DNA of 64,000 nucleotides from positions 2,451 to 66,450 of the forward strand of contig DAOQWA010000012.1 in NCBI GenBank assembly GCA_035341855.1, written 5' to 3'. This DNA comes from Bacteroidia bacterium (GTDB lineage: Bacteria > Bacteroidota > Bacteroidia > AKYH767-A > 2013-40CM-41-45). Below the pieces are notes generated by a model. It saw only the letters and a program-made list of their open reading frames with translations. It made no database searches and was not told the DNA's origin. The translations under genes and the position numbers were made by a program. Shown piece by piece: positions 43,067-58,723 of the stretch. Numbering within the stretch: position 1 is the first letter of the stretch; each line of letters opens with the position of its first letter.

Positions 43067-44323
43067 TTGACTTTCGACGATTTTAATTTTTTCCCTTCTC
43101 TCATAGAAGGACTCGATGCAATGGGTTTCTCCAAACCCACTCCCATCCAGGAACAAGTAATCCCTATAATTCTTAAAGGAAAAGACCTTATAGCTTGTGC
43201 CCAAACGGGTACAGGAAAAACGGCAGCCTATCTTTTGCCAACCTTACATAGAATTGCTGCAGACAAGATTCCTCACACATCTGCCTTAATTGTTGCACCA
43301 ACACGTGAACTGGCACAACAAATAGACAATGCCTTTCAGGGATTTGCATATTTTACACATGCCAGTTCTATCGCCGTTTACGGTGGTAGCGACGGACAGG
43401 TATTTGAACGGGAAAAGAAGGCTCTCGCTGAAGGAACTTCTGTGGTCATTGCAACTCCGGGCAGACTATTAAGTCATCTCAATAATGGCTATGTAAAATT
43501 CGACAAACTAGATGTTCTCATCCTTGACGAAGCAGATAAAATGCTTGATATGGGTTTTTATGAGGATATTCTTAAAATCATTCGATATCTTCCGGTGAAA
43601 AGGCAAAATTTATTGTTTAGTGCCACGATGCCTTCAAAGATGCGTGAATTGGCAAAGCGTATATTACATGATCCTATTGAAGTAAACATCGCTATCAGTA
43701 AACCTGCTGCCGGCATCCTGCAAAATGCTTACCTTGTTTACGACTCTCAAAAAATTCCGCTTACACGCGATATTCTCATTGCTAAAAATTTAGACAGCGT
43801 CTTAATATTTGCTTCTACAAAATCCGGTGTGAAAGCATTGGAGAAGGAACTGCTTCGCATGAAATTATCTGCTAAAGCAATCCATAGTGATCTCAGCCAA
43901 AATGAACGTGAAGAAGTGCTGCTAAGTTTTCGAAACAGAAACACAAAGATTCTGGTAGCCACAGACATTCTTTCACGTGGTATTGATATAGAAAACATCG
44001 GACTTGTTATCAACTACGATGTTCCAGGCGATGCAGAAGATTATGTTCACCGCGTTGGAAGAACTGCACGTGCTGCGTCTACCGGTGAGGCAATTACCCT
44101 TATCAACGAGAAGGATCAACGTCGTTTTTCTCAAATTGAAGAATTAATTGAGAAGGAAGTTCCAAAGTTGCCACTACCTGTTGAATTGGGTTCAGGTCCT
44201 GCCTGGGCTCCTCAGAAAAAACATTCCTTTAAACCTTCAGGCAGATCAGGGCGCCCGTTTAAAAAAGGGAATCACAAAGGTCATAGACAAAGACCAAAAG
44301 GTGACGGACCAAAAAAAAATTAA
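43067..44323 (+). CDS. DEAD-box RNA helicase (RhlE-like)
   Basis: Q motif, AQTGTGKT, PTRELA, DEAD, SAT, HRVGRTAR and a basic C-terminal tail. TTG start. Confidence 0.95.
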   Translation: MTFDDFNFFPSLIEGLDAMGFSKPTPIQEQVIPIILKGKDLIACAQTGTGKTAAYLLPTLHRIAADKIPHTSALIVAPTRELAQQIDNAFQGFAYFTHASSIAVYGGSDGQVFEREKKALAEGTSVVIATPGRLLSHLNNGYVKFDKLDVLILDEADKMLDMGFYEDILKIIRYLPVKRQNLLFSATMPSKMRELAKRILHDPIEVNIAISKPAAGILQNAYLVYDSQKIPLTRDILIAKNLDSVLIFASTKSGVKALEKELLRMKLSAKAIHSDLSQNEREEVLLSFRNRNTKILVATDILSRGIDIENIGLVINYDVPGDAEDYVHRVGRTARAASTGEAITLINEKDQRRFSQIEELIEKEVPKLPLPVELGSGPAWAPQKKHSFKPSGRSGRPFKKGNHKGHRQRPKGDGPKKN

Positions 44324-45825
44324 TTAATTACTCCTTTCAAATTAAAATCTTTTTCAATGAGTTCTGCAACAATTTTTGCAGAAAGCAAGCACAGGGGAAT
44401 CCCTGCTCCGGGATGCACACTACCTCCACAAAAATAAAGACCCTGCTTTCCTTTAATAAAATTTGGATGTCTTAAAAAAGCAGAGAAGACTCCATTACTG
44501 CTGTTCCCATAAATAGAACCTTTCCACGAACCTGTTTGTGCTTCTATATCTCTAGGGGATATCACTTCTTCTACCTCTATCAAATTTTCCAGATCAATAT
44601 TCAATGTATTCGAGAGCTTTCTTATAATCTGCTTTCTTACCCTATCGATGAGTGTGTCCCAATTTTGTCCTTCATCACATGGAGCAGTAATCATCACAAA
44701 CCAATTTGCCTTTCCTGATGGCGCATCACCGGTTGAATGTGATGAAGTGTTACATAAATAAATTGAAGGGTCATTACAAATTGTCTTTTCTTTAAATACG
44801 GCATTATATTCGAGCAGATCATCTTCACCGAAAAAAGTATTATGCAAATTAATTGAAGAAACATTTTCTTTTAACCCCCAAAGAAAAATAATGACCGAAC
44901 TTGATCTTTCTTGTTTGAGTGAAAAATCATTTTTCTTTATCCCGTGCATGAGTTGATGATAAGCTACATGAATGTCGGTATTGCAAATCACACAAGAACT
45001 TTCATGAAATTTATTGCCTGCTTTCACACCCTTCACACTTCCATCCTTTATCACAATTTCATCAACCCTTTGTCCATAATTGATTTCTACTCCACATTCA
45101 CCTGCCAATTTAAGCATAGCTTCAACAATCTTACGCATCCCTCCTTTGGAAAAATAAGCTCCTTCATTCATTTCGAAATGACTGATCACATTCAGAGTAC
45201 CCGGAGCTTCAAAAGGATTTGATCCATTGTAACTGGCATAACGATCAAAGATTCTCACAAGTCTGTCATCTGATAAATTTCTTCTATTATAATAATGCAT
45301 TGTTTGAAATGCACGAACTTTTCTAAACTGCACAATGCCTCTAACTGTAGGCCAATTAAAATAATTTTTAATTTTGTGAAGAGAGCGTTCTAAAAAAACC
45401 TTATGCGTCAGTTTGTATATTTTATGAGCATCCCTCAGCACCTTTTTGAGATTAGAAACAGGTTCTGTTGATTTTGCCTGTAACTCTTTTAACATTTTCC
45501 CCGGATCAGAAAAAGTATTTATGAAAGTCTTATCATTAAAGTAAAAACGGAATAAGGGGTCAACTTTTTCGAGACTGATATAATCATCCATGTTTTTACC
45601 GCAAAGATCAAATAGTTCTTTTAGATACTCAGGTTTGGTAAGGACAGAAGGACCAATATCAAAACGGAAACCATTGATATTCTTCTCGGCAATTTTTCCT
45701 CCTGCCTGAGAATTTGCTTCGAATATTCGAACTTTCCAACCCAATCGTGATGCTCGTATTGCAGCAGCCAGACCGGCTATTCCTGATCCGACTACTATAC
45801 AAATATTACCCCTCTTATCAGACAT
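44320..45825 (-). CDS. crtD: 1-hydroxycarotenoid 3,4-desaturase (CrtD-type phytoene desaturase family)
   Basis: GSGIAG, FRFDIGPS, RYASYNGSNPF, GSIYGNSSN...AFLRHPNF and GGSVHPGAGIPLCLLSA resemble Bacteroidota CrtD. Confidence 0.8.
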   Translation of the reverse strand: MSDKRGNICIVVGSGIAGLAAAIRASRLGWKVRIFEANSQAGGKIAEKNINGFRFDIGPSVLTKPEYLKELFDLCGKNMDDYISLEKVDPLFRFYFNDKTFINTFSDPGKMLKELQAKSTEPVSNLKKVLRDAHKIYKLTHKVFLERSLHKIKNYFNWPTVRGIVQFRKVRAFQTMHYYNRRNLSDDRLVRIFDRYASYNGSNPFEAPGTLNVISHFEMNEGAYFSKGGMRKIVEAMLKLAGECGVEINYGQRVDEIVIKDGSVKGVKAGNKFHESSCVICNTDIHVAYHQLMHGIKKNDFSLKQERSSSVIIFLWGLKENVSSINLHNTFFGEDDLLEYNAVFKEKTICNDPSIYLCNTSSHSTGDAPSGKANWFVMITAPCDEGQNWDTLIDRVRKQIIRKLSNTLNIDLENLIEVEEVISPRDIEAQTGSWKGSIYGNSSNGVFSAFLRHPNFIKGKQGLYFCGGSVHPGAGIPLCLLSAKIVAELIEKDFNLKGVIN

Positions 45826-45863
45826 TCTGAATGACTCTACAGTTGTACTTATTAATAATATTG

Positions 45864-45871
45864 CAAATCTA
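45864..45871 (-). promoter_or_regulatory. Bacteroidota -7 promoter box for crtD
   Basis: TAGATTTG on the minus strand, 38 nt upstream of the crtD ATG. Confidence 0.55.
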
Positions 45872-45970
45872 TCAATTTCAATTTCTTGAACACAAATATT
45901 TTAGTTCTGAATATTTACATTACGGTCGATCAATTTATCATTTCTTAGGCTAAGAATAGATGATAAATGG

Positions 45971-45978
45971 TATTTTTG
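45971..45978 (+). promoter_or_regulatory. Bacteroidota -7 promoter box for the carrier-protein operon
   Basis: TATTTTTG, 18 nt upstream of ATG 45997. Confidence 0.55.
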
Positions 45979-45996
45979 GCATTTATAAAACTATAA

Positions 45997-46257
45997 ATGT
46001 CAGACCTTAAACCAGCCGATCAAGTTAAAGAAGCTTTGATGGATTTTCTCAGGGACAATCACGGATTCTCAGGGACAAATTTTTCTTCAGAACAGAATCT
46101 TAAAGACGCCGGCATTGATTCTTTCAAGATTATCGAATTAATTCTCTTCATGGAAAACAATTTCAATATCAAATTTCCGGAGGAGTCTTATACAGCAGCT
46201 AACTTGTATTCAGTTGATTCTATCGTCAAATGTGCCTTTCGTGAAAATTTCCGATGA
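45997..46257 (+). CDS. stand-alone acyl/peptidyl carrier protein
   Basis: 86 aa with a GIDS phosphopantetheinylation motif (Ser42) and ELILFMENNFNIKFP. Confidence 0.88.
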   Translation: MSDLKPADQVKEALMDFLRDNHGFSGTNFSSEQNLKDAGIDSFKIIELILFMENNFNIKFPEESYTAANLYSVDSIVKCAFRENFR

Positions 46258-47510
46258 CCATGCCAACGATGACCGGTGCTGACAGATTTCAGTTTTTTTT
46301 AGACAAGGATGGTCGTAAAAACACCGGCATTGGTAATACTATTAAAACACATATTGTTCTTAAGGGTGTACTTACACGTGAACAGATAAGCGGGGTTATA
46401 AAAAATAACAAAGCAATTGAATTTTTATCGTCCCTCTCAGCAAAAAGAAAATTTTATTCATTCCAATTTTTCTGGAAGCAAGGAACAAGACCCGGACTCG
46501 AAAATATTTTCAGTTACGAAGTATCAAAATCCGCTCAAGTATTAATTGACAAAGCGCTAACTTACGACTGTAATCCGGAGCGGGGTTCTCCCATACTTGT
46601 TGACGTGATTGCAGATATTGAACTTAAATTAACGCACATTATTCTCTCGGTGAATCATAGCCTGCTCGATTATGCCGGCATGGAATTGTTACTTAAATCC
46701 TTTTCTGAAGACAGTGATAGCTTGATACTACACATGCCTCCTCAAAAGCCTTTTTCCTTATTCAAAAGATTTGTCCAAACTATACAGGCAACGGCTTTTG
46801 TCGCCAAAAGATCCGGTTGGAATATCCAAAGGCTTGAAAAAACCTCTGTTAATTACAAGCCTGTTTTCACAGAGTTAAGCATTTCGAACCAGGAGTTGCG
46901 ATCAGAAAGTGTTTCATCAAGAAGCATAGGCATTCCCAGGTACCTGGCATGTTCGATACATGCTTTGTGCAAAAGCTCAAAAATTTTTAAGAATCACCAA
47001 CTACCTGTTTTTGTGCCTGTTCCCTTGAACAGGAGAACTGAAAAATACAACAGAGTTCTTCTTTCCAACAGATTTTCATTTTTATTCTTCAGAATAAATA
47101 CAAATGAATTTTCCAATGTTAAATCTTTGGAAAGGGCTTTTCTTCAACAAATGATTCTACAAGCTCAACAGAAAATTCCTGAAAAATTTGATTCTCTTCT
47201 GAGTGTTTTTTCCTTACTGCCGAATTCAATATATAGAGCGTTTCTGAACCTGCCTTCTAAAGGTCATTCTTCGACATTTGCATTTTCAAATTTGCCGGTA
47301 TCTGTTCTTGATGGTAGCACATTCCTGGGGATGAAAATAATCGATTTCACACACTACCCTCCCTTTCTTTCGCCTCCTGGATTAAATCTTGCCATCATTG
47401 AAATGAAAGATGGTATCAAACTGGTAAGCTGCTATGATTCTACAAGGCTAACAACAGATGATGCCAATTTGCTTCTACAAGATATTAAAAGTAATTTGAT
47501 AAGCTCTTGA
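46254..47510 (+). CDS. free-standing condensation-domain / PapA5-like CoA-dependent acyltransferase-fold protein
   Basis: NHSLLDYAG (HxxxD), VPVPLNRR and FSNLP. ATGA overlap with the carrier protein gene. Confidence 0.65.
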   Translation: MTMPTMTGADRFQFFLDKDGRKNTGIGNTIKTHIVLKGVLTREQISGVIKNNKAIEFLSSLSAKRKFYSFQFFWKQGTRPGLENIFSYEVSKSAQVLIDKALTYDCNPERGSPILVDVIADIELKLTHIILSVNHSLLDYAGMELLLKSFSEDSDSLILHMPPQKPFSLFKRFVQTIQATAFVAKRSGWNIQRLEKTSVNYKPVFTELSISNQELRSESVSSRSIGIPRYLACSIHALCKSSKIFKNHQLPVFVPVPLNRRTEKYNRVLLSNRFSFLFFRINTNEFSNVKSLERAFLQQMILQAQQKIPEKFDSLLSVFSLLPNSIYRAFLNLPSKGHSSTFAFSNLPVSVLDGSTFLGMKIIDFTHYPPFLSPPGLNLAIIEMKDGIKLVSCYDSTRLTTDDANLLLQDIKSNLISS

Positions 47511-48742
47511 ATAATTCCTTCTATACAGATGTGCTCATAATTGGCGCCGGCGCCGCAGGTATTGCAGCGGCTACAGCCTCAGTTGAAGCCGGAGCATCCG
47601 TAACAGTCGTTGAAAAATTAAACTATCCTGGGGGATGCGCAACTGCTTCCGCTGTCGGAACCATCTGTGGCCTCTTTCTGCGTGGAGAAAAAGAAGTGTT
47701 CTCGATGAATGGGCTTCCAAAAGAGTTTGCCTTAAACATCTTGAAAAAATCTAAGAAAGAACCTCAACGCTTTTCAGAAAAACTTTGGTTCATTCCTTGC
47801 CAGGCAAATCATTTCAGATCAGTCGCAGAAGAATACCTCTCACACGAGAAGATTAATATTCTTTACAACACAGAAGTAAAATCAATTTCACAAGCAGGGG
47901 GATTGATTGATAAAATAGTTATAGAAAACAAAAATGTAAAACAAACGATCTTTGCTAAGGCATATATAGATTGTTCGGGAGTAGGTGTAACTCTTTCGCT
48001 TTTAAAACATCCTCTAATCCTCGATAAACAGCAGCAAGCTGCAGCAGTTGTTTTTCAAGCAAATGGAATACTTTCCGAGAATGAATTTTCTCTACATCAT
48101 CTTATCATCAAATATATCACTCAGGCAATCAAGCCGGGTTCCGAACAGGAGTTTTACAAACTAATTAGCATTATTCCGGGATCTCTTAAGAATGGTTCTG
48201 CTCAATTTAAATTAGGTATCCCTTGGACTCCTGAAGGTGATCCGGTTGAATTGAATTTCCATGCACACAAATTCATTCATGAAGTACTTTCTTTTCTTAA
48301 GTCCGGAATGCCACAGTTTGAAAATGCAAGTCTTGCCTGGATAGCTGACGAGGTAGGGCAACGTAGTGGCGCAAGACCTATAGGAAGAGAAATACTGAAA
48401 GAAGAAGATGTATTGACTTGCAAAAAAAGAACAGACGAAATATGTAAAGGCTCGTGGCCAATCGAGTTTTGGGAAATTGGAAATAAAAAAGTTAATATGA
48501 CCTACTTCCCGCAAAATGACTACTATTCTATACCCGCTTCTTGTCTGATATCAAACACCTTTACAAATTTGTTTTTTGGAGGCAAATTAATTTCTGCTTC
48601 TGAAAAGGCAATTGCAAGTGCAAGAGTTATTGGTACATGTTTAGGTACAGGTTATGCAGCAGGAATACTCGCAACATATAAGTCAATGGGAAAATCAGAA
48701 CAGGAAGGTATTTCCTTTATTCAAAACCGCATCTCAATTTAG
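47507..48742 (+). CDS. FAD-dependent oxidoreductase (FAD_oxidored/PF12831-like)
   Basis: DVLIIGAGAAGIAAA...EK...GG, IDCSG and ASARVIGTCLGTGYAAG. TTG start overlapping the upstream TGA. Confidence 0.85.
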   Translation: MNNSFYTDVLIIGAGAAGIAAATASVEAGASVTVVEKLNYPGGCATASAVGTICGLFLRGEKEVFSMNGLPKEFALNILKKSKKEPQRFSEKLWFIPCQANHFRSVAEEYLSHEKINILYNTEVKSISQAGGLIDKIVIENKNVKQTIFAKAYIDCSGVGVTLSLLKHPLILDKQQQAAAVVFQANGILSENEFSLHHLIIKYITQAIKPGSEQEFYKLISIIPGSLKNGSAQFKLGIPWTPEGDPVELNFHAHKFIHEVLSFLKSGMPQFENASLAWIADEVGQRSGARPIGREILKEEDVLTCKKRTDEICKGSWPIEFWEIGNKKVNMTYFPQNDYYSIPASCLISNTFTNLFFGGKLISASEKAIASARVIGTCLGTGYAAGILATYKSMGKSEQEGISFIQNRISI

Positions 48743-48747
48743 TTCTA

Positions 48748-50190
48748 ATGTCTTTTCAAAGCTTTGACATACTAGAGTCGTCTTGTGCCAAATGGCCAAA
48801 CAAAATAGCTATATACCATAACGATGATAAGATCACTTTCCAAAAATTACATGATAAAGCAAAAGCACTTGCAGACTTAATTTTAACTTCGCATAGCAAG
48901 GAAAGAAACGGAAAAGTTATAGGTTTACTGGCGGGAAATAATGCAAATTTCATTTCAGGATTGTTTGCAGCATCTGCAGCCGGCTATGTTGTGATGCCGG
49001 TTTGGAAAGATCTTGCTCCAATTGAAATTGTAAAAGTATTAGAACAGTCATACACTAAGCTTTTACTGATTGAAAAAAACATCTCTCTACACTTTCCTGT
49101 GCAACACGAAAGAACCCCGATTGACGGGAACTATGACATAATTACATTTAATGAATTAGCTGCTGAAAGTATCTATGACAAATTCGACGATGCTGCATTC
49201 ATTCGGCCCAGTTCCGGTACAACAGGGAATTCAAAAGGCGTAGTAATTTCTCATCAAGCAGTTCTTGAAAGAATAATTGCAGCCAACCAAGGACTCGAAC
49301 TTGGTCTCGATGACAAGGTTCTCTGGGTACTTCCAATGGCTTTTCACTTTCTTGTCTCTGTATGTCTATATATTTATTCCGGTTCCTCTATCATTATCAT
49401 AGATGATTTTTTTCCGGAGAAAATTATTGAAGAGTCAAATAGATTAAATGCAACTCTACTTTATGCATCACCATTACATTATCGTTTACTGGTAGCTTCA
49501 AGCTTAAAGGAACATTTTCTTACATTAAAAAAAGCTATATGCACCTCTGCAGAAATTGAACCGGACACGGTGAAAAAATTCAGGGAAAAATTTAATCTAA
49601 ATCTTAGCCAGGCATATGGAATCATAGAAATTGGACTTCCTCTCATCAACCTGAATAGGGATCCCGCAAAAGAGAATAGCATAGGAAAAGCACTTGAAGC
49701 TTATCAAGTAGGTATACTTGATGAATATTATAATTCAGTTGGAATTAATGAACCCGGCATGTTTGCCATCAAAGGGCCCGGTATGTTTTCCGGTTACCTT
49801 TGGCCTTTTCAAAGCAAGGAAGATGTCTTGCGAAATTCATGGTTTTTAACCGGAGATATCGCCCAAATAGATGAAGACAACTATGTCAGAATTTGTGGAA
49901 GAATGAAATCCATGATAAATGTTTCGGGCAATAAAGTATTTCCTGAAGAAGTAGAAGCCATCCTAAGATCACACCCGGAAATCACTGACGTCAGAGTGTT
50001 TAAAGGGTCACATCCATTGACCGGTGAAATTGTAGAAGCTGAAATCGTACTAAAGGAAAAATCAACTTTGACAACATCGGAGATAAATCTATTTTGCAGA
50101 AAACTTTTAGCCTCTGTTAAAATACCTCAGCGAATAAAATTCGTCAGCGAAATACAAAAAACAGTTACGGGCAAAACACTCAGGGCTTAA
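48748..50190 (+). CDS. class I adenylate-forming enzyme (acyl-CoA / acyl-carrier ligase)
   Basis: PSSGTTGNSKG, QAYGIIE, TGD, GRMKSMINVSGNKVFPEEVE and TGK. Confidence 0.9.
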   Translation: MSFQSFDILESSCAKWPNKIAIYHNDDKITFQKLHDKAKALADLILTSHSKERNGKVIGLLAGNNANFISGLFAASAAGYVVMPVWKDLAPIEIVKVLEQSYTKLLLIEKNISLHFPVQHERTPIDGNYDIITFNELAAESIYDKFDDAAFIRPSSGTTGNSKGVVISHQAVLERIIAANQGLELGLDDKVLWVLPMAFHFLVSVCLYIYSGSSIIIIDDFFPEKIIEESNRLNATLLYASPLHYRLLVASSLKEHFLTLKKAICTSAEIEPDTVKKFREKFNLNLSQAYGIIEIGLPLINLNRDPAKENSIGKALEAYQVGILDEYYNSVGINEPGMFAIKGPGMFSGYLWPFQSKEDVLRNSWFLTGDIAQIDEDNYVRICGRMKSMINVSGNKVFPEEVEAILRSHPEITDVRVFKGSHPLTGEIVEAEIVLKEKSTLTTSEINLFCRKLLASVKIPQRIKFVSEIQKTVTGKTLRA

Positions 50191-51352
50191 GACTTGTCGA
50201 ATAACCCAGACTCTCAAATGCAAAAGCCCAGCGTCTAACAATTTTTTCTTTCTCCGAATCATTAATTTTAAAAACATTCTTTTCGTAATTCTGATAGGCT
50301 TTCAATTCATCAATAAAAAATGGTTTAGCAGAGTCCAGACCTTCGAGTTCCAGTTTTTCGTAAATGTACTCCAATGATCTTAGTGGATCTATCTCGAAAT
50401 CTTCATATCTAATTTCAACTATATTATTTTGTGCAATCAACTTTTTGTCCTTGAAATATTGCTTCATTAAAAGTTCATAGCTGCCCATCACAAACTCTTC
50501 TACGTCTTTTATCTGTACTTGCTGAAATGAAAGTAGTGGCAAGAGCTTTCTGTATAGATGCAGATTACTTTGATACACATGATAAGGATTCCGGTAAATA
50601 TGTATGAAACGTGCATCCGGATACAAATCAAGAATCTGCTTAATCCTTCCGGTATTTCCTGGGCTCTTTAAAAGCAGAGTACCTGCATTTGATGAATAGC
50701 TAAGCTTCTTTAATAAATTATCAAAGTTATTTTTCCACCTGGATTCAGCTTTTGACCCGGTATTTAAAAACACAACATGATCACGAAAGTTTTTCATGAA
50801 GTTTTTTGGAAAATAATATCCGGCTACCAGGCTCTCAGCCCCAATGCCTGCCATTGCAAACTCTTCCTCCTTAGGTAAATGTGCTCCCATTTTTAAATTA
50901 TCCATTGGTCGTCTGCCCGGCAATACGCCTGACAACAATGCAGGAAATAATTTTGATCCGCTTAAAAATAAATGAGGGATCATTGCCTGATAGGTACTGC
51001 AATAAGAAAATCCCGGATCCTTGCTCATCAAATACTGCAAAAAAGTAGTGCCGCTTCTGGGATGCCCTATGATGAACACAGGATTTTTTACCCTAACCTT
51101 CGATACCCTCTTTCTATACCAAAATTTTTCTAACAATCGAAATGGTGTAGACAGAGCTATTGTAAGGCTGATGATAAAAACTTTAGGAACATACCCCGCA
51201 TCGATAGCAAACTTGTTGTTCGACAGTGTTTTTAACCAAGCCATCAGTCCCGAGCCATGAGCAGGGTGGCTGAAGAAAGAAAAATAATTTCGATAGCTGA
51301 ACTTCAAAAGACTTTTTGTCAAAACTACATAGAAAAGCAATAATATTTTCAA
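50180..51352 (-). CDS. PAPS-dependent sulfotransferase (Sulfotransfer_3, Stf3-like)
   Basis: 5'-PSB VFIIGHPRSGTTFL, RPMDN...PKEEE, LLKSP, 3'-PB YRNPYHVYQS and IRYEDF. TTG start. Confidence 0.88.
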   Translation of the reverse strand: MKILLLFYVVLTKSLLKFSYRNYFSFFSHPAHGSGLMAWLKTLSNNKFAIDAGYVPKVFIISLTIALSTPFRLLEKFWYRKRVSKVRVKNPVFIIGHPRSGTTFLQYLMSKDPGFSYCSTYQAMIPHLFLSGSKLFPALLSGVLPGRRPMDNLKMGAHLPKEEEFAMAGIGAESLVAGYYFPKNFMKNFRDHVVFLNTGSKAESRWKNNFDNLLKKLSYSSNAGTLLLKSPGNTGRIKQILDLYPDARFIHIYRNPYHVYQSNLHLYRKLLPLLSFQQVQIKDVEEFVMGSYELLMKQYFKDKKLIAQNNIVEIRYEDFEIDPLRSLEYIYEKLELEGLDSAKPFFIDELKAYQNYEKNVFKINDSEKEKIVRRWAFAFESLGYSTSLKP

Positions 51353-51397
51353 TTATATATCTCATTCCCGCTAGCTATTCATTATCCTGAGTATAAT

Positions 51398-51405
51398 TAA
51401 TTTTG
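51398..51405 (+). promoter_or_regulatory. Bacteroidota -7 box (DUF5686 gene)
   Basis: TAATTTTG. Confidence 0.5.
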
Positions 51406-51440
51406 AGTATGGATATAAGTATCTTCACAGATCACTATTT

Positions 51441-53933
51441 TTGTCAAGCGTGAAATATTTTCGTCTACTCCTCCTTGTTCTGCTTCTTATATCGGCTCAG
51501 AGTGTCTTTGCTCAAAATACAGGCATCAAAGGGCGGGTAATTCATGAGTATAATGAAGAACCTGTGCCTTATGCAAATGTTCTCCTAAAAGGCACAAGCA
51601 GAGGTACTGCCTGCGACAGCCTCGGAAGATTTCAGTTTACCGGTACAGGCAAACCGGATACCATCATGGTTTCTGCCATGGGTTATCTGGAACAACAGGT
51701 CCCGGTCTCACCATTGGCCGGCCAAACTCTTATTATCCGTCTTACCCCTAGCGAATATAATTTGGCAGAAGTCACCATAAAGCCCGGCGAAAACCCTGCA
51801 TTCGAAATTCTTCGAAAGGTCATTGCACACAAAAAGCAGAATAATCCGGATGAACTGGATGCGTATGAATATGAGGTTTATCACAAAGTTGAATTTGACT
51901 TGAATCATTTCACGGAAAAGATCAGAAAGAATATGTTTCTGCGTTCATTTGGTTTTATTTTCGATAACACAGATACAACTGCAGATGGTGTTACATACTT
52001 GCCAATACTATTCAATGAGTCAAATTCTGAAATTTATTTTAGAAAAAATCCGCGTATTAAAAAAGAATTTGTTAAAGGAAGAAGATCCGTTGGACTAAAA
52101 GGTCCTAAGATCATTCAATTTGTACAGGACATGTACCTCCACCCGAATATTTACGATGACTATGTAATTATACTGGATAAAAATTTTCCTAGTCCGCTAA
52201 ACGATAACTACAAATCAAATTACAAATTTTACCTCATCGACAGTCTTAACCTTGGAAACGATCGCTGTTACCACATTCAGTTCGTCCCAAAAGTAAAACA
52301 AGACATTGCATTTACGGGTGAAATGTTTATTGAAGATTCCGGATACTCTGTAAAGAGAATTGATTTGGAATTTAGCATTGAAGCAAATGTGAATTTCGTG
52401 CGCAACTACTGGATCAGACAAGAATATGAAAAACCTGATGGTGTCCACAGTATGATCAACAAAAGCCAGGTTATTGCCGATTTCACCGTTGCGGAAAATT
52501 CAGAGGAGCTTACAGGTTTCTTTGGAAGAAAAACTTCCTCTTTTAGAGATTACAAGATAAATCAAGTTAGAGACGACTCTTTTTATAAAGGCCTTGATCT
52601 TGTCAGCTTCCACGATAGCAGTGCTTCTAGAACAGATGAATATTGGAACACAAGAAGACAAGATAGTCTGAGCAAACAAGAAAAATCCGTGTTCAGTATG
52701 ATTGACACACTTGAAAAGAATAAAAAATTCAAACTACTCAAAAACTCAGTAAATACTTTCACCACCGGTTGGCTCCCGCTAAACCCGATCGGCATAGGAA
52801 ATATTTACACTTTTTATAGCTATAATAACGTTGAGCATTCTCGCCTGAAATTTGGTTTTCGCTATGGGAAAAATAATTTTGATAAACTCTATCTGAAAAG
52901 TTATCTCGCCTATGGTTTGGGAGATGAGCGTTTCAAATACATGGCAGAAGCTAGCCACGTTCTATATAGTCATGGTAGCAAGAAGACTATCCTTGGAGGA
53001 ATGATCAAAAAAGATGCGCATCAACCCGGACGCGGATCCAATATGTTTAGCCTTGATCACATCCTGAATTCTTTCACCAGCACTGCTTCAATGCACTTTC
53101 GTTCATACGTGGAAGAATATAGGTTCTATGCAGAAAGACAATGGATCACAGGGTTCAGTTCTCGCCTTTCCTGGTTTCGATCTGATTATAGTCCATTCGG
53201 TTCATATAAGTACTGGCAAAGAAATTCTGATGGAGCAATTTCAAGTAAAAAATCCTTGGTCAATGCAGGTTTGCAAGTATCTGCACGTTTCGCCTACGGT
53301 GAACGAAACCTGACGTCCAGATTTGGGGACGGACTTGAAGCCCTATACTTCCCAAAGTTTCCTGTAATAAGTTTGGAGTATAGCAAAAGCTTCAAGGATG
53401 TTTCAGGATCAGAATTTGATTTTCAAAAAATAAGATTAAGAATTGAACAAAAAGTCCGCTTGAAAAAAATCGGCTTCTCACTCCTTCGCCTGGAAACAGG
53501 AAAAATATTAGGAACTGCACCATGGCCATTATTGGAAACACCTATTGCCAATCAAGTCATCTTCAACGATGAGACAGCCTTCAATCTGATGAATTACATG
53601 GAATTTGTTTCTGATCAATACCTGAGTCTGATGATTGAACATCATTTTGAAGGATTGTTCTTTAATCGATTACCCGGTATTAACAAACTCAAGTGGCGTG
53701 AATTTATTTTTGCAAAAGCTTATGGCGGAACATTAAGTGAAAAAAATTATGGCACAAGCTTGTATATCCCTTTCGGAATAGGAAAGCTTACAGAACCATA
53801 TTATGAAGCAGGATTTGGTATTGAAAATATTTTTAAAATCTCAAGAATTGACTTTATCTGGAGATTAAACTACATTGATAAACCGGGGGTGTACTATTTT
53901 GTAGTAAAACCGTCATTCTATTTTAAATTCTAG
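51441..53933 (+). CDS. carboxypeptidase-regulatory-like domain + DUF5686 outer-membrane protein
   Basis: N-terminal IKGRV...EPVPYANV...G.F domain, YEYEVYHK, and C-terminal YYEAGFGIENIFKISRIDFIWRL. Confidence 0.85.
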   Translation: MSSVKYFRLLLLVLLLISAQSVFAQNTGIKGRVIHEYNEEPVPYANVLLKGTSRGTACDSLGRFQFTGTGKPDTIMVSAMGYLEQQVPVSPLAGQTLIIRLTPSEYNLAEVTIKPGENPAFEILRKVIAHKKQNNPDELDAYEYEVYHKVEFDLNHFTEKIRKNMFLRSFGFIFDNTDTTADGVTYLPILFNESNSEIYFRKNPRIKKEFVKGRRSVGLKGPKIIQFVQDMYLHPNIYDDYVIILDKNFPSPLNDNYKSNYKFYLIDSLNLGNDRCYHIQFVPKVKQDIAFTGEMFIEDSGYSVKRIDLEFSIEANVNFVRNYWIRQEYEKPDGVHSMINKSQVIADFTVAENSEELTGFFGRKTSSFRDYKINQVRDDSFYKGLDLVSFHDSSASRTDEYWNTRRQDSLSKQEKSVFSMIDTLEKNKKFKLLKNSVNTFTTGWLPLNPIGIGNIYTFYSYNNVEHSRLKFGFRYGKNNFDKLYLKSYLAYGLGDERFKYMAEASHVLYSHGSKKTILGGMIKKDAHQPGRGSNMFSLDHILNSFTSTASMHFRSYVEEYRFYAERQWITGFSSRLSWFRSDYSPFGSYKYWQRNSDGAISSKKSLVNAGLQVSARFAYGERNLTSRFGDGLEALYFPKFPVISLEYSKSFKDVSGSEFDFQKIRLRIEQKVRLKKIGFSLLRLETGKILGTAPWPLLETPIANQVIFNDETAFNLMNYMEFVSDQYLSLMIEHHFEGLFFNRLPGINKLKWREFIFAKAYGGTLSEKNYGTSLYIPFGIGKLTEPYYEAGFGIENIFKISRIDFIWRLNYIDKPGVYYFVVKPSFYFKF

Positions 53934-53972
53934 TTATTTTCTTAGAGTTTTTCTTTCGGTTGTTTTCTTGCG

Positions 53973-53980
53973 TAATTTTG
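53973..53980 (+). promoter_or_regulatory. Bacteroidota -7 box (hypothetical-crtZ)
   Basis: TAATTTTG. Confidence 0.55.
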
Positions 53981-54011
53981 CATCGATCTTCAAATTACCA
54001 AACAGTTTGTC

Positions 54012-54554
54012 ATGCAATACCGGAATCTGATCAGGCTTGTCTTCGTGCTGAATTTAATCTTGCTCTTTATCCCGGCTAACTTGGTTTCTGCCCAAAGTTT
54101 GACACTGGAAGAAATTAGAAGGGACTTTCCGAAGGCATCTAAGGACGAATCTGCCTGTGGCGAACTTTATTCAAAGATGGAATTATCCGCCAATAAAACA
54201 GACCCTATATGGATGGCATATCACGGAACCATAACAGTAATGTTGGCAAAATACAGCATGAATCCATTTAGAAAATTACAGTATTTCAAGTCCGGAAGAA
54301 TTCTTATTGATCAAAGCCTGCTGAAAGATCCAAACAATATTGAACTCCGATTTCTCCGTTTTACCGTGCAGGATCATACTCCATTCTTTCTCGACTACCA
54401 TGAAGATCTGGAAAATGACAAGAAATTTATTCTGGCGCAACTTGAAAAGGTACCATTTCCGTTGTTAAAAAAAGCCATTATTCACTATATTGCAGAAAGT
54501 GACAGGTTTTCTGCCGAAGAAAAAAAACTGGTCTCCAAATTAGGCGGATCTTGA
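54012..54554 (+). CDS. conserved secreted hypothetical protein, helical, carotenoid-gene neighbour
   Basis: Signal peptide (VSA/Q), AKYSMNPFRKLQYF and IELRFLRFTVQ. Lies 3 nt before crtZ. Confidence 0.65.
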   Translation: MQYRNLIRLVFVLNLILLFIPANLVSAQSLTLEEIRRDFPKASKDESACGELYSKMELSANKTDPIWMAYHGTITVMLAKYSMNPFRKLQYFKSGRILIDQSLLKDPNNIELRFLRFTVQDHTPFFLDYHEDLENDKKFILAQLEKVPFPLLKKAIIHYIAESDRFSAEEKKLVSKLGGS

Positions 54555-54557
54555 GCT

Positions 54558-55019
54558 TTGAATAATATGCAAACCATTTTAGTAAATATTGCGATAGTAC
54601 TTGGCAGCTTTATAGTAATGGAAGGAGTAGCCTGGTCATCACATAAGTTTTTAATGCACGGATTTCTTTGGAAAGTTCATCAAGATCATCATACAGGAAC
54701 GAAAAGTTTTTTTCAGAGAAACGATCTCTTCTTTTTCATCTTCGCTATTCCGAGCTGGCTCTTTATGATGTTCGGCATTATGGCAGGATGCGACTATCGT
54801 ATGTGGATAGGAATTGGAATTGCCCTGTATGGAATAGCATACTTTATGGTTCATGAAGTCATTATTCACCAACGCTTGAAATTTTTCAGCAGAAGCAATA
54901 ACAGATATATCGTTGCCGTTAGAAAAGCCCATAAAGCACATCACAAACACCTGGGAAAGGAAAACGGTGAGTGTTTCGGCATGTTAATGGTTCCTTTCAA
55001 ATATTTTAAAAGACAATAA
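54558..55019 (+). CDS. crtZ: beta-carotene hydroxylase
   Basis: MEGVAWSSHKFLMHG, HQDHH, FMVHEVIIHQR and HKAHH histidine boxes. Confidence 0.9.
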   Translation: MNNMQTILVNIAIVLGSFIVMEGVAWSSHKFLMHGFLWKVHQDHHTGTKSFFQRNDLFFFIFAIPSWLFMMFGIMAGCDYRMWIGIGIALYGIAYFMVHEVIIHQRLKFFSRSNNRYIVAVRKAHKAHHKHLGKENGECFGMLMVPFKYFKRQ

Positions 55020-55774: not shown

Positions 55775-56073
55775 TTTATTATCATGATCATTTAAATTCC
55801 TAAAGAAGCCGGGTACCGGCAAATTTTTAAATCCTTGGTCGCCCATAAAACCGGGAAGGAACACCATGCTGGAGCTATTTAGTGCCCTCAGAAAAACTTG
55901 AAAACAACCAATGGGGGTACCCGAAAATCTTCTCAGGAATATTTTTGTCATTTATTTATTCTTTTAATCAAAATGTTTTCTTCGATTATGTATTTTGTAG
56001 CCTCAGATCACAGAGAATTGCTATCCTGTTTGTAAGACGATCAAATCTCATTTTGCAAATAAGCAACACAAGC

Positions 56074-56090
56074 ACGCAATCTATCTGCGC
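56074..56090. promoter_or_regulatory. candidate WYL operator upstream of the WYL gene
   Basis: ACGCA-atctatc-TGCGC, 16 nt upstream of ATG 56107. Confidence 0.55.
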
Positions 56091-56106
56091 ACTAATCTTT
56101 TTTTTT

Positions 56107-57117
56107 ATGCCAAAGAATAAAGAAGCTTATACCCGCTATCGCCTCATCGATGAGGCTTTGAAAAACAAACAAAAGCCATTTCCCAGCCTTAATGAACTGG
56201 CTGAAAAGTGTGAGCACCTTCTTGGAAAACGTGTTTCGGAGTCAACAATGCAAAAAGACATATATGCCATGCGTTTTGATGAAGGGTTAAATTTTCTTGC
56301 TCCTATCAACTATAGTAAAGCAAGAAAAGGTTATTACTATACTGATCCTGACTACTCCATCAGTAAATTACCTTTAAAGCAGGAAGATCTTTATGCACTG
56401 GAATTTGCAGCAGGATTATTAAGGCAATTCAAGGATTTCCCGATTCTGAAACAGTTTGACAATACCATCGGACGTTTATTACAAGCCGTACAGATAAGTC
56501 GTTCTCTTTATGGCACAGAAATAACAGATTTCATCCAGGTTGAACGACCTTCACACTCTGATGGAACAGATCATTTAGAGAAAATCCTCAAAGCTATCAC
56601 CAATAAAGTGGAGATCCAGTTTCAATATTTTAATTTTTCCAAAGCAACTACCAGTCATCATAACCTTCATCCATACCTGGTAAGAGAATACAGAAACCGA
56701 TGGTATGTCACTGGACACTCGCCTAAGCATAACAGGATCCTAACTTTCGGACTAGATCGCATTAAACATCTGCAGGTAACAGGAACAATGTTTGAAAAAG
56801 ATGCACACTTCAACGCAAAGAAATTCTTTCATCATTCTTTCGGAATCACTGTCAACGATCTTATCCCGGTTAAGGTTGAATTATCATTTACTCCACTGGA
56901 GGGCCTATACATAAAAGCTCAGGCTATCCATCACACACAAAAAATACTGAAAGACAATTCAAAGGAATTAAGAATAAGTATTGATGTCATCCCCTCTCAT
57001 GAATTAAACATGCAAATTCTGAGTTATGGCGATAACGTAAAAGTTATTAAACCAAAGGAGCTGAGAAAAGAAATCCAGGATAGTATTAAAAGTGCTTTGA
57101 AGAATTATACCAAGTGA
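56107..57117 (+). CDS. wHTH-WYL-WCX transcriptional regulator
   Basis: MPKNKEAYTRYRLID...STMQKDIYAMR (wHTH), LHPYLVREYRNRWYVTG...TFGLDRI (WYL) and HELNMQILSYGDNVKVIKP (WCX). The ORF-track start at 55882 is over-extended. Confidence 0.93.
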   Translation: MPKNKEAYTRYRLIDEALKNKQKPFPSLNELAEKCEHLLGKRVSESTMQKDIYAMRFDEGLNFLAPINYSKARKGYYYTDPDYSISKLPLKQEDLYALEFAAGLLRQFKDFPILKQFDNTIGRLLQAVQISRSLYGTEITDFIQVERPSHSDGTDHLEKILKAITNKVEIQFQYFNFSKATTSHHNLHPYLVREYRNRWYVTGHSPKHNRILTFGLDRIKHLQVTGTMFEKDAHFNAKKFFHHSFGITVNDLIPVKVELSFTPLEGLYIKAQAIHHTQKILKDNSKELRISIDVIPSHELNMQILSYGDNVKVIKPKELRKEIQDSIKSALKNYTK

Positions 57118-57200
57118 GTTTAACCCCAATCTTTTCTCAGTTCAAAATATCCTCTCTTGTTAATTTCAGGAATAGCGATAAAAGAATCCCTAAAGCCTGA

Positions 57201-57219
57201 TACGCATATACAATGCGTA
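57201..57219. promoter_or_regulatory. perfect palindrome, candidate WYL operator upstream of the DUF2779 gene
   Basis: TACGCAT-ataca-ATGCGTA, 34 nt upstream of the ATG. Confidence 0.65.
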
Positions 57220-57253
57220 GTGACTCATTATTTTTACAATCTCAAAAACTCTG

Positions 57254-58723
57254 ATGCGTCACATTCTATCTAAATCAACATTCCTCTACGGTACACAGTG
57301 CCCAAAGCGTCTTTACTTTTATAAATTCAGGCGTGATTTGCTGGGAGAAATTTCTGCATCTCAACAAGCAATCTTTGACAGAGGCACCTCAGTGGGAGAA
57401 CTGGCAAGGGATCTATTTCCGGGTGGCGTGGACGCCTCGCCTGCCTCGCCATATGACTATGCAAAATCAGTCCTGGTCACAAAACAGATGATTGATGCAG
57501 GTGAAAAAATTATTTATGAAGCCGCCTTCCAATACGAAGGTGTTTTGGCTGCCGTTGATATACTGGTAAAGAAAAACGGAAAGTGGAAAGCCTACGAGGT
57601 AAAAAGCTCTACCTCTGTGAAGGAAGTGAATATTCTGGATGCAGCACTACAATACCACGTAATCACTAATTCCGGGATAGACCTGGCAGATATATTCATT
57701 GTCCATCTTAACAACGAATATGTTCGCAAAAAGAATTTAGTGATAGAGGAATTATTCTCAATAGTGTCAGTAAAAAATGATGCACTGGAAAATCAAACTT
57801 TTGTCATCGAAAAAATTTCTGAATTACTCGATCTGATAAAGTCAAAGAAAGAACCTAAGCAAGATATCGGACCACATTGCTCAGATCCGTATACCTGTGA
57901 TTTCATGGATCATTGTTGGAAACATATTCCCGAACCTTCTGTTTTCAATCTTACCGGTATGCGTAGCGCTAAAAAATTTGAGTTTTATGAACAGGGTATT
58001 ATAAAAATCTCTGACCTACCCGATAGCACACAATTAAGCGACTATCAACACATCCAGATGGAAGCATATTTGAAGAATAAAAAAAATATTGACAAAGAAA
58101 ATCTACGCGACTTCCTTAAGGACTTCAGATACCCATTATACTTTATGGACTTTGAATCTTTCCAGCCGGCAGTACCACTTTATCGAAATAGCAGACCCTA
58201 TCAACAAATTCCTTTTCAGTATTCATTACATTATTTGAAAGACAAAATGTCGAATGCTCATCATTCAGAATTTTTAGCAGAGTCAAACGGTGATCCCCGT
58301 ATTCCTTTCATCGAAAAACTACTTGAGGATACAAAATCTGCCGGAAAAATAGTCACTTACAACATGTCTTTTGAACGAATGATTCTCAATAGCATTGCCA
58401 ATGACTTTCCGCAGTATGCAGAGGATATAGAGGATCGCTGTGAACGCTTACTTGATTTGATGCCTCCTTTCAGAAAAGGCTGGTACTACAAACCTGAAAT
58501 GGATGGATCTTATTCAATCAAACAGGTATTACCTGCTCTGGTACCTGATCTTACCTATGATGAACTTGAAATTGCCGATGGCGGCTCCGCAAGTCTGGCC
58601 TTCGAACAAATTCTATTTGACCCCAATGCCGATACAGAAAAAATCCGCAGCCAGCTTCTCGAATATTGCAAGATGGATACATTAGCCATGATCAAACTCC
58701 TGGCTGTTTTGGAAAAAGTATAA
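57254..58723 (+). CDS. DUF2779-type protein: Cas4/RecB-like PD-(D/E)XK nuclease fused to a DEDDy 3'-5' exonuclease-like domain
   Basis: C16 plus C209/C215/C221, VD102IL...E115VK117, MD299FE301, YNMSFE374 and Y471CKMD475. Confidence 0.85.
   Translation: MRHILSKSTFLYGTQCPKRLYFYKFRRDLLGEISASQQAIFDRGTSVGELARDLFPGGVDASPASPYDYAKSVLVTKQMIDAGEKIIYEAAFQYEGVLAAVDILVKKNGKWKAYEVKSSTSVKEVNILDAALQYHVITNSGIDLADIFIVHLNNEYVRKKNLVIEELFSIVSVKNDALENQTFVIEKISELLDLIKSKKEPKQDIGPHCSDPYTCDFMDHCWKHIPEPSVFNLTGMRSAKKFEFYEQGIIKISDLPDSTQLSDYQHIQMEAYLKNKKNIDKENLRDFLKDFRYPLYFMDFESFQPAVPLYRNSRPYQQIPFQYSLHYLKDKMSNAHHSEFLAESNGDPRIPFIEKLLEDTKSAGKIVTYNMSFERMILNSIANDFPQYAEDIEDRCERLLDLMPPFRKGWYYKPEMDGSYSIKQVLPALVPDLTYDELEIADGGSASLAFEQILFDPNADTEKIRSQLLEYCKMDTLAMIKLLAVLEKV

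Follow-up and report, generated by a model that had tools for sequence, protein, structure and literature searches.

Sulfated carotenoids have been known to chemists for decades, and the literature that we searched names no gene for carotenoid sulfation. Here we describe a nine-gene island at positions 44320-55019 of a 64,000-nucleotide stretch of DNA from a Bacteroidia bacterium (GenBank assembly GCA_035341855.1, contig DAOQWA010000012.1, positions 2,451 to 66,450; this whole stretch is hereafter called the window, and unprefixed coordinates refer to it). In this island, genes for a CrtD-like desaturase and a CrtZ-type hydroxylase enclose a carrier-protein module, a sulfotransferase gene and genes for two putative envelope proteins. 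The block is present or absent among relatives as a single unit, and we hold with good confidence that it functions as one unit connected with carotenoid metabolism. In our estimate the chances are about even that the nine genes form an accessory island that tailors a carotenoid supplied by crtI-crtB-crtY clusters elsewhere in the genome, through acylation, sulfation and delivery to the outer membrane. No published description of this cluster or pathway was found in the literature searched.

Several described systems share parts of the island. The flavobacterial myxol and saproxanthin pathway (CrtY, CruF, CrtD, CrtA-OH, plus CrtZ, for example in Nonlabens spongiae) likewise continues from crtI, crtB and crtY with a CrtZ and a desaturase of the CrtD family, and its CrtD acts on the 1'-hydroxy product of CruF; as far as the available part of its description goes, however, its gene cluster has no counterpart of the carrier module, the sulfotransferase or the DUF5686 protein (PMC11855829), and CruF was not found in the six genomes with the island that were searched for it. 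Erythrobacter makes the sulfates of zeaxanthin, caloxanthin, nostoxanthin and erythroxanthin, which are sulfated hydroxy-carotenoids of the kind proposed here, but it belongs to the Alphaproteobacteria and no acyl module is involved; in the accessible portion of the paper, the carotenoid sulfotransferase is inferred only from cell-extract activity and no gene is named (PMC6627997). In the mycobacterial sulfomenaquinone pathway, Stf3 sulfates a hydroxylated isoprenoid chain after the CYP128 hydroxylase has acted, so that a hydroxylase and a sulfotransferase using 3'-phosphoadenosine-5'-phosphosulfate (PAPS) work on a long isoprenoid envelope lipid, as they would here; the phylum and the likely scaffold are different, and the accessible text mentions no carrier module, CrtD or DUF5686 (PMC7404182).

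Modules homologous to that of the island lie inside aryl-polyene and flexirubin clusters of Bdellovibrionota and of metagenomes, together with genes for ketosynthase (KS), chain-length factor (CLF), ketoreductase (KR), ApeP dehydratase, halogenase, LolA, MMPL and GT2 proteins; in the window, by contrast, tblastn found no KS/CLF, KR, dehydratase or LolA/MMPL genes. The parts list of the module, whose genes are translationally coupled, also matches that of C-1027 biosynthesis, in which the free-standing set SgcC1-SgcC2-SgcC3/SgcC-SgcC5 of adenylation enzyme, carrier, flavoenzymes and condensation enzyme esterifies a tailored acid onto the scaffold. Between the two there is no detectable sequence relationship, however, the flavoprotein of the island belongs to PF12831 and not to a halogenase/hydroxylase family, and the proposed acceptor is a membrane pigment. 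The carotenoid acyltransferases already described, CrtO of Staphylococcus and CruD of Salinibacter and cyanobacteria, also yield a fatty acyl ester on a carotenoid derivative, but they are integral-membrane enzymes that act on a glycoside and are not known to need a dedicated carrier, whereas the candidate in the island is soluble, has the condensation fold and comes with a carrier and a ligase of its own.

Results

Layout of the island

The genes of the island and the region between the first two are as follows (aa, amino acids; FAD, flavin adenine dinucleotide; HxxxD, the motif by which the second gene of the module is named).

44320-45825, minus strand: CrtD-like FAD desaturase of the CrtI flavoenzyme family, 501 aa (NF042421, 499.6 bits)
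45826-45996, no strand: divergent intergenic region between crtD and the carrier gene, 171 nt (read from the sequence)
45997-46257, plus strand: free-standing acyl/peptidyl carrier protein, 86 aa (PF00550)
46254-47510, plus strand: stand-alone HxxxD enzyme, 418 aa (no Pfam match; N-H-S-L-L-D-Y-A-G at residues 134-142)
47507-48742, plus strand: FAD-dependent oxidoreductase, 411 aa (PF12831, 222 bits)
48748-50190, plus strand: stand-alone adenylate-forming ligase (AMP-ligase), 480 aa (PF00501, PF13193)
50180-51352, minus strand: PAPS-type sulfotransferase with a hydrophobic N-terminus, 390 aa (PF13469, 107.2 bits; PF00685, 35.9 bits)
51441-53933, plus strand: DUF5686 protein with a CarboxypepD_reg domain, 830 aa (PF18939, 185 bits; PF13715, 55.5 bits)
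54012-54554, plus strand: exported, all-helical hypothetical protein, 180 aa (no Pfam match)
54558-55019, plus strand: CrtZ-type carotene hydroxylase, 153 aa (PF04116, 43.3 bits; cut-off 31)

This order had been given by a first-pass annotation of the window, and the open reading frame (ORF) list and family scans placed every gene where it had been put. The divergent region of 171 nt was measured as such, and the absence of crtB, crtI and crtY from the window was borne out by tblastn with the genome's own copies, which matched only the crtD gene (25% identity to CrtI). Overlaps of 4 nt join the carrier gene to the HxxxD gene and the HxxxD gene to the flavoprotein gene, the ligase gene starts after a 5-nt gap, and the ligase and sulfotransferase genes overlap at their 3' ends by 11 nt (50180-50190).

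Presence and absence among relatives

Carriers of the cluster were counted with a profile of the HxxxD protein (alignment A1, 15 sequences), which matched in 9 of 60 relatives and in none of 400 genomes of other Bacteroidota species sampled across the phylum. The distribution is rare and patchy: carriers make up two of the five genomes in the window's own genus, all five in a second genus of the same family and two of the three in a genus of another family. One of the nine is an unpublished genome (G450), which was used only in the carrier tallies and in the crtB tally given below.

The three genomes of the window's genus without the HxxxD gene (G403, G404 and G405) have the flanking genes of the island joined, with no island genes between them. 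The order is WG-repeat, DEAD helicase and DUF218 with a 178-bp gap in G403; DUF2779, WYL, DUF218, DEAD and WG-repeat in G404, the helicase abutting DUF218 in both; and DUF2779, WYL, 1.2 kb, DEAD and WG-repeat, with no DUF218 match, in G405. A CrtD orthologue is absent from all three, the best match being their own CrtI at 25-26% identity, and so is a DUF5686 orthologue, for which the best match is a paralogue at 37-38%, compared with 72% in the carrier G401. These genomes are also without the crtZ of this locus. The block from crtD to crtZ (44320-55019) is a single presence/absence unit.

The gene set in close relatives

A scan of one genome per species with the HxxxD protein gave ten loci, seven in Bacteroidota and three in Bdellovibrionota, all of them in metagenome-assembled genomes (MAGs). 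In all seven Bacteroidota loci a crtD-like gene adjoins the carrier/HxxxD genes in divergent orientation, and the sulfotransferase gene follows the ligase gene convergently wherever the contig is long enough (5 of 5). Over all close loci, the window included, the crtD-like gene adjoins the module in 10 of 10. The order of the window is kept in G401 through DUF5686, the 180-aa gene, crtZ, DUF218 and WYL, and in locus L019 through crtZ; the crtZ orthologues that end the island there are 90% and 72% identical, respectively. In G439, which belongs to another family, the cluster is rearranged to crtD, HxxxD, sulfotransferase, DUF5686, 180-aa gene, carrier, flavoprotein and ligase; it has no crtZ, and a cytochrome P450 gene at its edge (L047:553-1953) may stand in for the CrtZ hydroxylase. 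That the same eight genes are kept despite this rearrangement argues for a shared function, and the gene arrangement, which recurs in all relatives found, is not due to chance.

In genus g188 (L015, L016 and L018) the sulfotransferase gene is followed not by DUF5686 but by genes for a second carrier protein, a KS, a Ketoacyl-synt_2 (CLF-like) protein and a histidine kinase. Upstream in L018 lie genes for UbiA, a type III polyketide synthase, a methyltransferase and an FAD monooxygenase.

Distant versions of the module

The A1 profile found, with HMMER, 621 HxxxD representatives at E<=0.001 among 1.84 billion proteins. A metagenome scan with an alignment of a distant subfamily (A4) gave 77 loci, 40 of them at least 6 kb long, which were labelled by tblastn with the window proteins, the aryl-polyene proteins of L021 and L022 and the genome's CrtI, CrtB and CrtY; Pfam confirmed the labels. 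In 15 of these 40 loci the HxxxD gene is followed by a sulfotransferase gene, a DUF5686 gene or both, and among the 15 we found crtD in 10, crtZ in 4, crtB in 2 and crtI with a cyclase gene in 1; three of the five without crtD end at a contig end. The sulfotransferase and the DUF5686 protein belong to the carotenoid-linked form of the module.

A whole carotenoid gene set precedes the module in L105, where the order is crtI, crtB, crtZ, lycopene cyclase, crtD, ATP-binding cassette (ABC) ATPase and ABC-2 permease, continuing with carrier, HxxxD, flavoprotein, ligase, sulfotransferase, DUF5686 and an outer-membrane barrel. In L085, crtB, crtZ, crtD and the ABC pair precede the module; in L082 and L100, crtZ and crtD stand beside it; and L121 contains two additional FA_hydroxylase genes, of which one separates the HxxxD gene from the sulfotransferase gene. 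A gene for a 577-aa FAD monooxygenase-like protein lies between crtD and the carrier gene in L118 (7894-9627) and also in L115, L126 and L111; the protein weakly matches Trp_halogenase and Lycopene_cycl, and neither a ligase nor a PF12831 gene is present in its lineage.

All three Bdellovibrionota loci are clusters of a halogenated aryl-polyene type. The window's genome has a full flexirubin-type cluster of its own (C6:79072-104710; L031 and L032), which contains no HxxxD gene. This C6 cluster encodes an aromatic amino-acid lyase, a KR, several KS/CLF proteins, two carrier proteins, a halogenase-like protein, an O-methyltransferase, LolA and GT2/DUF2062, as well as a 1281-aa MMPL-acyltransferase-methyltransferase fusion, a CrtI-family oxidase, AAT and a PaaK-like ligase.

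The desaturase and the hydroxylase

Against NF042421 (1-hydroxycarotenoid 3,4-desaturase CrtD) the window desaturase scores narrowly below the curated cut-off of 500 (499.6 bits, and 499.2 in the genome search), a cut-off that 27 of 201 sampled Bacteroidota genomes pass; against TIGR02734 it scores 350.7 bits. Its identity is 46-49% with Pedobacter and Mucilaginibacter proteins that bear the name CrtD and 37-44% with a comparison set of CruF-linked CrtDs; it reaches 50-78% with a closer group, whose members are unnamed or called 'phytoene desaturase' and in several cases come from contigs on which the module is also present. A quick maximum-likelihood tree of 58 rows places the window desaturase within Bacteroidota CrtD relative to CrtI. 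All 21 cassette-linked CrtDs, a label derived from how the loci were found, stand on one side of a branch with a Shimodaira-Hasegawa-like approximate likelihood ratio (SH-aLRT) value of 99, and eight CrtDs from CruF loci lie outside this clade. The separate clade suggests that the linked CrtDs evolved together with the module.

The translated hydroxylase of 153 aa contains H-x4-H, H-x2-H-H and a further H-rich box, and it is 55.6% identical to the crtZ product of the carotenoid cluster on C23, the other copy in the genome.

The carrier module

The carrier protein matches PF00550 with 21.9 bits (cut-off 20.8). G39, D41 and S42 are shared by all 14 module carriers compared, Ser42 being the attachment serine of G-x-D-S. 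The HxxxD protein matched no Pfam or NCBIfam family at E<=0.01, PF00668 (Condensation) included, and the best E-value of its profile against the sequences in PDB was 0.028. When the wax ester synthase/diacylglycerol acyltransferase families (PF03007 and PF06974) were tried, the window protein gave no match, and 1 of 16 proteins listed bore a precomputed PF06974 label. Names for ten distant relatives were almost only those of unnamed metagenome proteins. His135, Asp139 and Gly142 are invariant in 15 HxxxD sequences; of the 36 motifs parsed, 22 begin with H and 14 with N, and both forms occur in both contexts.

An AlphaFold model of the HxxxD protein built with 117 sequences (predicted local distance difference test, pLDDT, 93.6; predicted template-modelling score, pTM, 0.93) matches 340 PDB chains at E<=0.001 in Foldseek. 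After the top match, the dehydratase AzeD discussed below, come the condensation (C) domains of nonribosomal peptide synthetases, namely the lipo-initiating starter C domain of RzmA, SrfA-C and CDA C1, and the acetyltransferase TRI3, with template-modelling (TM) scores that, AzeD included, range from 0.5 to 0.76. The modelled protein has a two-lobed condensation-domain fold resembling chloramphenicol acetyltransferase, and we regard it as a putative acyl-carrier-dependent O-acyltransferase. The PF12831 flavoprotein accompanies the module in most loci and has no close solved relative (best PDB E-value 3.6e-5). The nearest solved relatives of the ligase are generic enzymes of the adenylate-forming ANL type (oxalate-, 4-coumarate- and malonyl-CoA ligases); presumably the ligase loads the carrier protein.

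The sulfotransferase

The translation contains a G-H-P-R-S-G-T-T loop, with P-R-S-G-T-T, the PAPS-binding loop, at about residues 98-103, and PAPS supply is encoded in the same genome by an adenosine-5'-phosphosulfate (APS) kinase gene (G000:C17, 219.7 bits). The nearest solved relative is PDB 2z6v (E 1.1e-10). At E<=1e-10 there are 619 homologues; of the 120 listed, those with names are mostly called 'sulfotransferase' or 'hypothetical protein', and several, at 43-53% identity, carry the automatic Joint Genome Institute (JGI) name 'omega-hydroxy-beta-dihydromenaquinone-9 sulfotransferase' (Stf3 type). Being an automatic label, this name is only a lead. The longest ORF of the window gene begins at TTG and has no -7-like box upstream on its strand (51353-51440); the true start may be internal.

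The DUF5686 protein and the 180-aa protein

Orthologues of the DUF5686 protein (45-72% identity) occur only in cluster-bearing genomes, whereas non-carriers have paralogues at 35-38%, and the DUF5686 gene follows the sulfotransferase gene in 12 of 14 metagenome loci. The literature on DUF5686 gave incidental mentions only. The window's genome holds three paralogues, one of which (C6:71969-79028; L155) belongs to an inositol-lipid-type operon with genes for myo-inositol-1-phosphate synthase, PgpA, GtrA, DUF5686, CDP-alcohol phosphatidyltransferase, DUF4833 and PAP2. This context hints that DUF5686 proteins may handle envelope lipids in general, and the one in the island is presumed to be an outer-membrane component. 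In G404 a DUF5686 paralogue (G404:C4:1051683-1053329) is interrupted by 16 in-frame stops (10 TGA, 3 TAG and 3 TAA).

The model of the 180-aa protein (pLDDT 89.6) has nine helices. Foldseek gave no match at E<=0.001, only weak matches to TPR and 14-3-3 proteins, and the protein atlas returned only unnamed Bacteroidota clusters. Three canonical crt clusters (L145-L147) encode a relative of this protein between crtB and the gene for the cyclase, and in two relatives such a gene adjoins crtI. A paralogue precedes a 299-aa gene and a gene resembling beta-ketoacyl synthase III (KAS III) at C7:98295-103009 (L156) and at L018:18427-20958, an arrangement that we take to resemble the dialkylresorcinol genes darA and darB. 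After the KAS III-like gene, L156 continues with BtrH_N/DUF4872 and an ABC ATPase. The position of the DUF5686 and 180-aa paralogues beside inositol-lipid-type and KAS III-like genes fits a role in handling envelope lipids.

Genome setting and upstream regions

The host genome (98.9% complete, 1.75% contamination) has a core carotenoid cluster crtI-crtB-crtYcd on C22:40025-43055 (L011) and a second on C23:35101-40565 (L012) with a MerR/CarH-like gene, crtI, crtB, idi, the second crtZ and crtYcd; it alone among six carriers checked has two crtB genes. The G+C content is 0.34-0.40 in the island and 0.38-0.41 in the flanks, and this closeness gives no sign of recent foreign origin. Copies of the Bacteroidota -7 box TAnnTTTG stand 39 nt upstream of crtD (45864-45871, minus strand) and 19 nt upstream of the carrier gene (45971-45978, plus strand). 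Across the window the box is not enriched (70 found versus 70.35 expected), and the well-placed copies are weak evidence of promoters. Directly downstream of the island lie genes for a WYL/WCX regulator and a DUF2779 nuclease-like protein (55882-58723), which are retained in genomes without the island.

Discussion

From homology and gene context, we infer acylation and sulfation of a carotenoid, and we propose the following route. The CrtZ of the island would hydroxylate the beta ring, and the CrtD-clade flavoenzyme would desaturate an open psi end without the usual hydration by CruF. The AMP-ligase would adenylate a carboxylic acid and load it onto the phosphopantetheine arm of the carrier (Ser42), where the PF12831 flavoprotein may modify the tethered acyl group before the condensation-fold enzyme, using His135 and Asp139, moves it to a pigment hydroxyl to form an ester. 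A remaining hydroxyl would then be sulfated by the membrane-anchored sulfotransferase with PAPS, and the anionic pigment lipid so formed would be set into the outer membrane by the DUF5686 protein and the exported 180-aa protein; an ABC-2 exporter is added in other versions of the cluster.

The first-pass annotation had suggested that the HxxxD enzyme and the sulfotransferase may decorate hydroxylated carotenoids. Comparison across genomes bears this out in good part: the cluster in its sulfotransferase-bearing form is linked to carotenoid genes, as seen in the close loci and in L105, L085, L082 and L100, but the four-gene carrier module as such is not carotenoid-specific. Of the 40 metagenome loci of at least 6 kb, 25 are without crt genes, sulfotransferase and DUF5686; 12 of the 25 have halogenase, KS, KR, ApeP dehydratase, GT2/DUF2062, LolA or phosphopantetheinyl-transferase genes of the aryl-polyene/flexirubin type, and the other 13 have the module only, some with an ABC-2 pair (L084, L087, L133 and others). 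Because the module occurs in both crt and aryl-polyene/flexirubin clusters, the carrier-HxxxD(-flavoprotein-ligase) set is portable between polyene-pigment clusters.

Those 25 loci weigh against the proposed route, and so do several further observations. The ligase and flavoprotein genes are missing in L082, L100, L111, L115, L118, L121, L124 and L126, and two loci with sulfotransferase/DUF5686 genes show no crtD in the available sequence, which extends 10 kb to either side in L131 and 4.4 kb upstream in L123. CruF (PF04240) did not turn up in any of the six carrier genomes that were searched for it (97-100% complete; CrtC, PF07143, was not searched), whereas all five control Bacteroidota genomes with CrtD have it, within about 2 kb of crtD in four of them. 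As the flavobacterial CrtD uses the product of CruF and the carriers gave no CruF match, the desaturase here probably has another substrate. The earlier statement that CrtD acts in hydroxy-carotenoid synthesis cannot be transferred as it stands to this 'CrtD', which forms a separate clade. The HxxxD protein of the window has Asn, not His, before the catalytic His, and its top structural match is a dehydratase and not an acyltransferase. A search for an operator shared by the intergenic regions of the island and the regions upstream of crtI and MerR on C22 and C23 gave only AT-rich 11-mers with one mismatch. The occurrence of crtB in 10 of 10 carrier genomes, compared with 37 of 51 non-carriers among the relatives, is weak support because kin are not independent, and all carriers that have a record title are uncultured MAGs.

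Other explanations have to be set against the same evidence. The module may yield a separate product, for instance a lipo-amino acid or an acylated small acid for the envelope, and the sulfotransferase and the DUF5686 protein would then act on this product and not on the carotenoid, the nearness of pigment genes reflecting only shared regulation or export of envelope-lipid genes. The 13 loci in which the module has no pigment genes in the available sequence, some with only the ABC-2 exporter, and the 12 in aryl-polyene/flexirubin contexts speak for this explanation, as does the presence among the top structural matches of C domains of the starter type, whose reaction links an amino acid to a fatty acyl group. 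It is nevertheless at odds with the position of crtD beside the sulfotransferase-bearing form in 10 of 15 metagenome loci and in every close locus, with the joint gain and loss of crtD, crtZ, DUF5686 and the module, and with the separate clade of the linked CrtDs, and we consider it unlikely, although it is the most credible of the alternatives. A little harder to credit is another scaffold, a menaquinone side chain or a fatty-acyl lipid, on which the CrtD-clade enzyme and CrtZ would have been repurposed to yield an envelope lipid like sulfomenaquinone. The Stf3-type names given by JGI point that way, and in mycobacteria the hydroxylase CYP128 precedes Stf3, according to the part of the source available (PMC7404182); there is also the P450 in the G439 cluster, the lost link of this CrtD clade to CruF, and the DUF5686 paralogue within an inositol-lipid-type operon. 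Yet these names are automatic annotations, the cluster is repeatedly contiguous with crtI, crtB, a cyclase gene and crtZ (L105, L085, L082 and L100), the CrtZ of the island is close to that of a normal crt cluster (55.6%), and in the quick tree the desaturase nests in Bacteroidota CrtD, not in another branch of the CrtI family.

The structural search raises a different possibility, that the product contains no ester. AzeD, a stand-alone dehydratase of the C family from Pseudomonas aeruginosa with a P-H motif, is described, in the portion of the preprint available, as removing a hydroxyl adjacent to a conjugated system, and the first His is reported there to vary (bioRxiv 10.64898/2026.07.17.738954). 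Were the HxxxD protein a dehydratase of this kind, sulfate could serve as the leaving group, or water could be lost directly, so that conjugation would be extended and the final pigment would bear neither acyl group nor sulfate. The TM score of AzeD (PDB 8s6l; 0.76, E 4.5e-20) exceeds that of every acyl-transferring C domain (0.5-0.7), both proteins stand alone, and in both the first His of HHxxxDG is replaced, by Asn in the window protein; moreover, the sulfotransferase weakly matches a polyketide synthase sulfotransferase domain (4gox, E 0.0016), and, as CruF was not found, unusual end-group chemistry is conceivable. AzeD and the HxxxD protein share only 13% identity, however, and P-H differs from the N-H of the window and from the H-H that prevails in the HxxxD family. 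In nearly every locus the HxxxD gene is accompanied by a gene for a carrier with an invariant serine, and usually also by one for a ligase; a dehydratase of a free lipid needs neither. We give this possibility a small chance, the slimmest of these three.

Hardly credible, finally, is the explanation that the first-pass annotation had kept in reserve, an unrelated cassette inserted into a pre-existing split crt cluster, with crtD and crtZ unconnected to the genes between them. Its appeal lies in the location of crtI, crtB and crtY elsewhere in the genome and in the modules without crt genes in other lineages. The joined flanks of the three island-less genomes of the same genus, where no crtD-crtZ pair is left at the locus and no DUF5686 orthologue was found, refute it, and the gene set survives the rearrangement in G439 and the linked CrtDs form a clade of their own. 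We therefore retain the reading of a carotenoid-tailoring island at the even chance given above.

Beyond this, we tentatively raise the possibility, which we rate as somewhat less than even, that the island marks a new class of envelope lipid in uncultured Bacteroidota, namely a thiotemplate-esterified, PAPS-sulfated carotenoid inserted in the outer membrane by DUF5686. If so, it would hold the first carotenoid sulfotransferase gene and the first carrier-protein-dependent carotenoid acyltransferase and would give DUF5686 a function, and the module would be a portable O-acylation kit used by aryl-polyene and flexirubin pigments as well. The island is a concrete candidate for the gene for carotenoid sulfation, and the coupling of a thiotemplate module to a carotenoid would be a new route of pigment decoration. 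The analysis also provides a functional context for the HxxxD family, which has no Pfam model, for DUF5686 and for the 180-aa helical family, and it delineates a large CrtD subclade without CruF that is probably mis-annotated as '1-hydroxycarotenoid 3,4-desaturase'. For the lineages that carry the island, an anionic pigment lipid would be a distinguishing trait.

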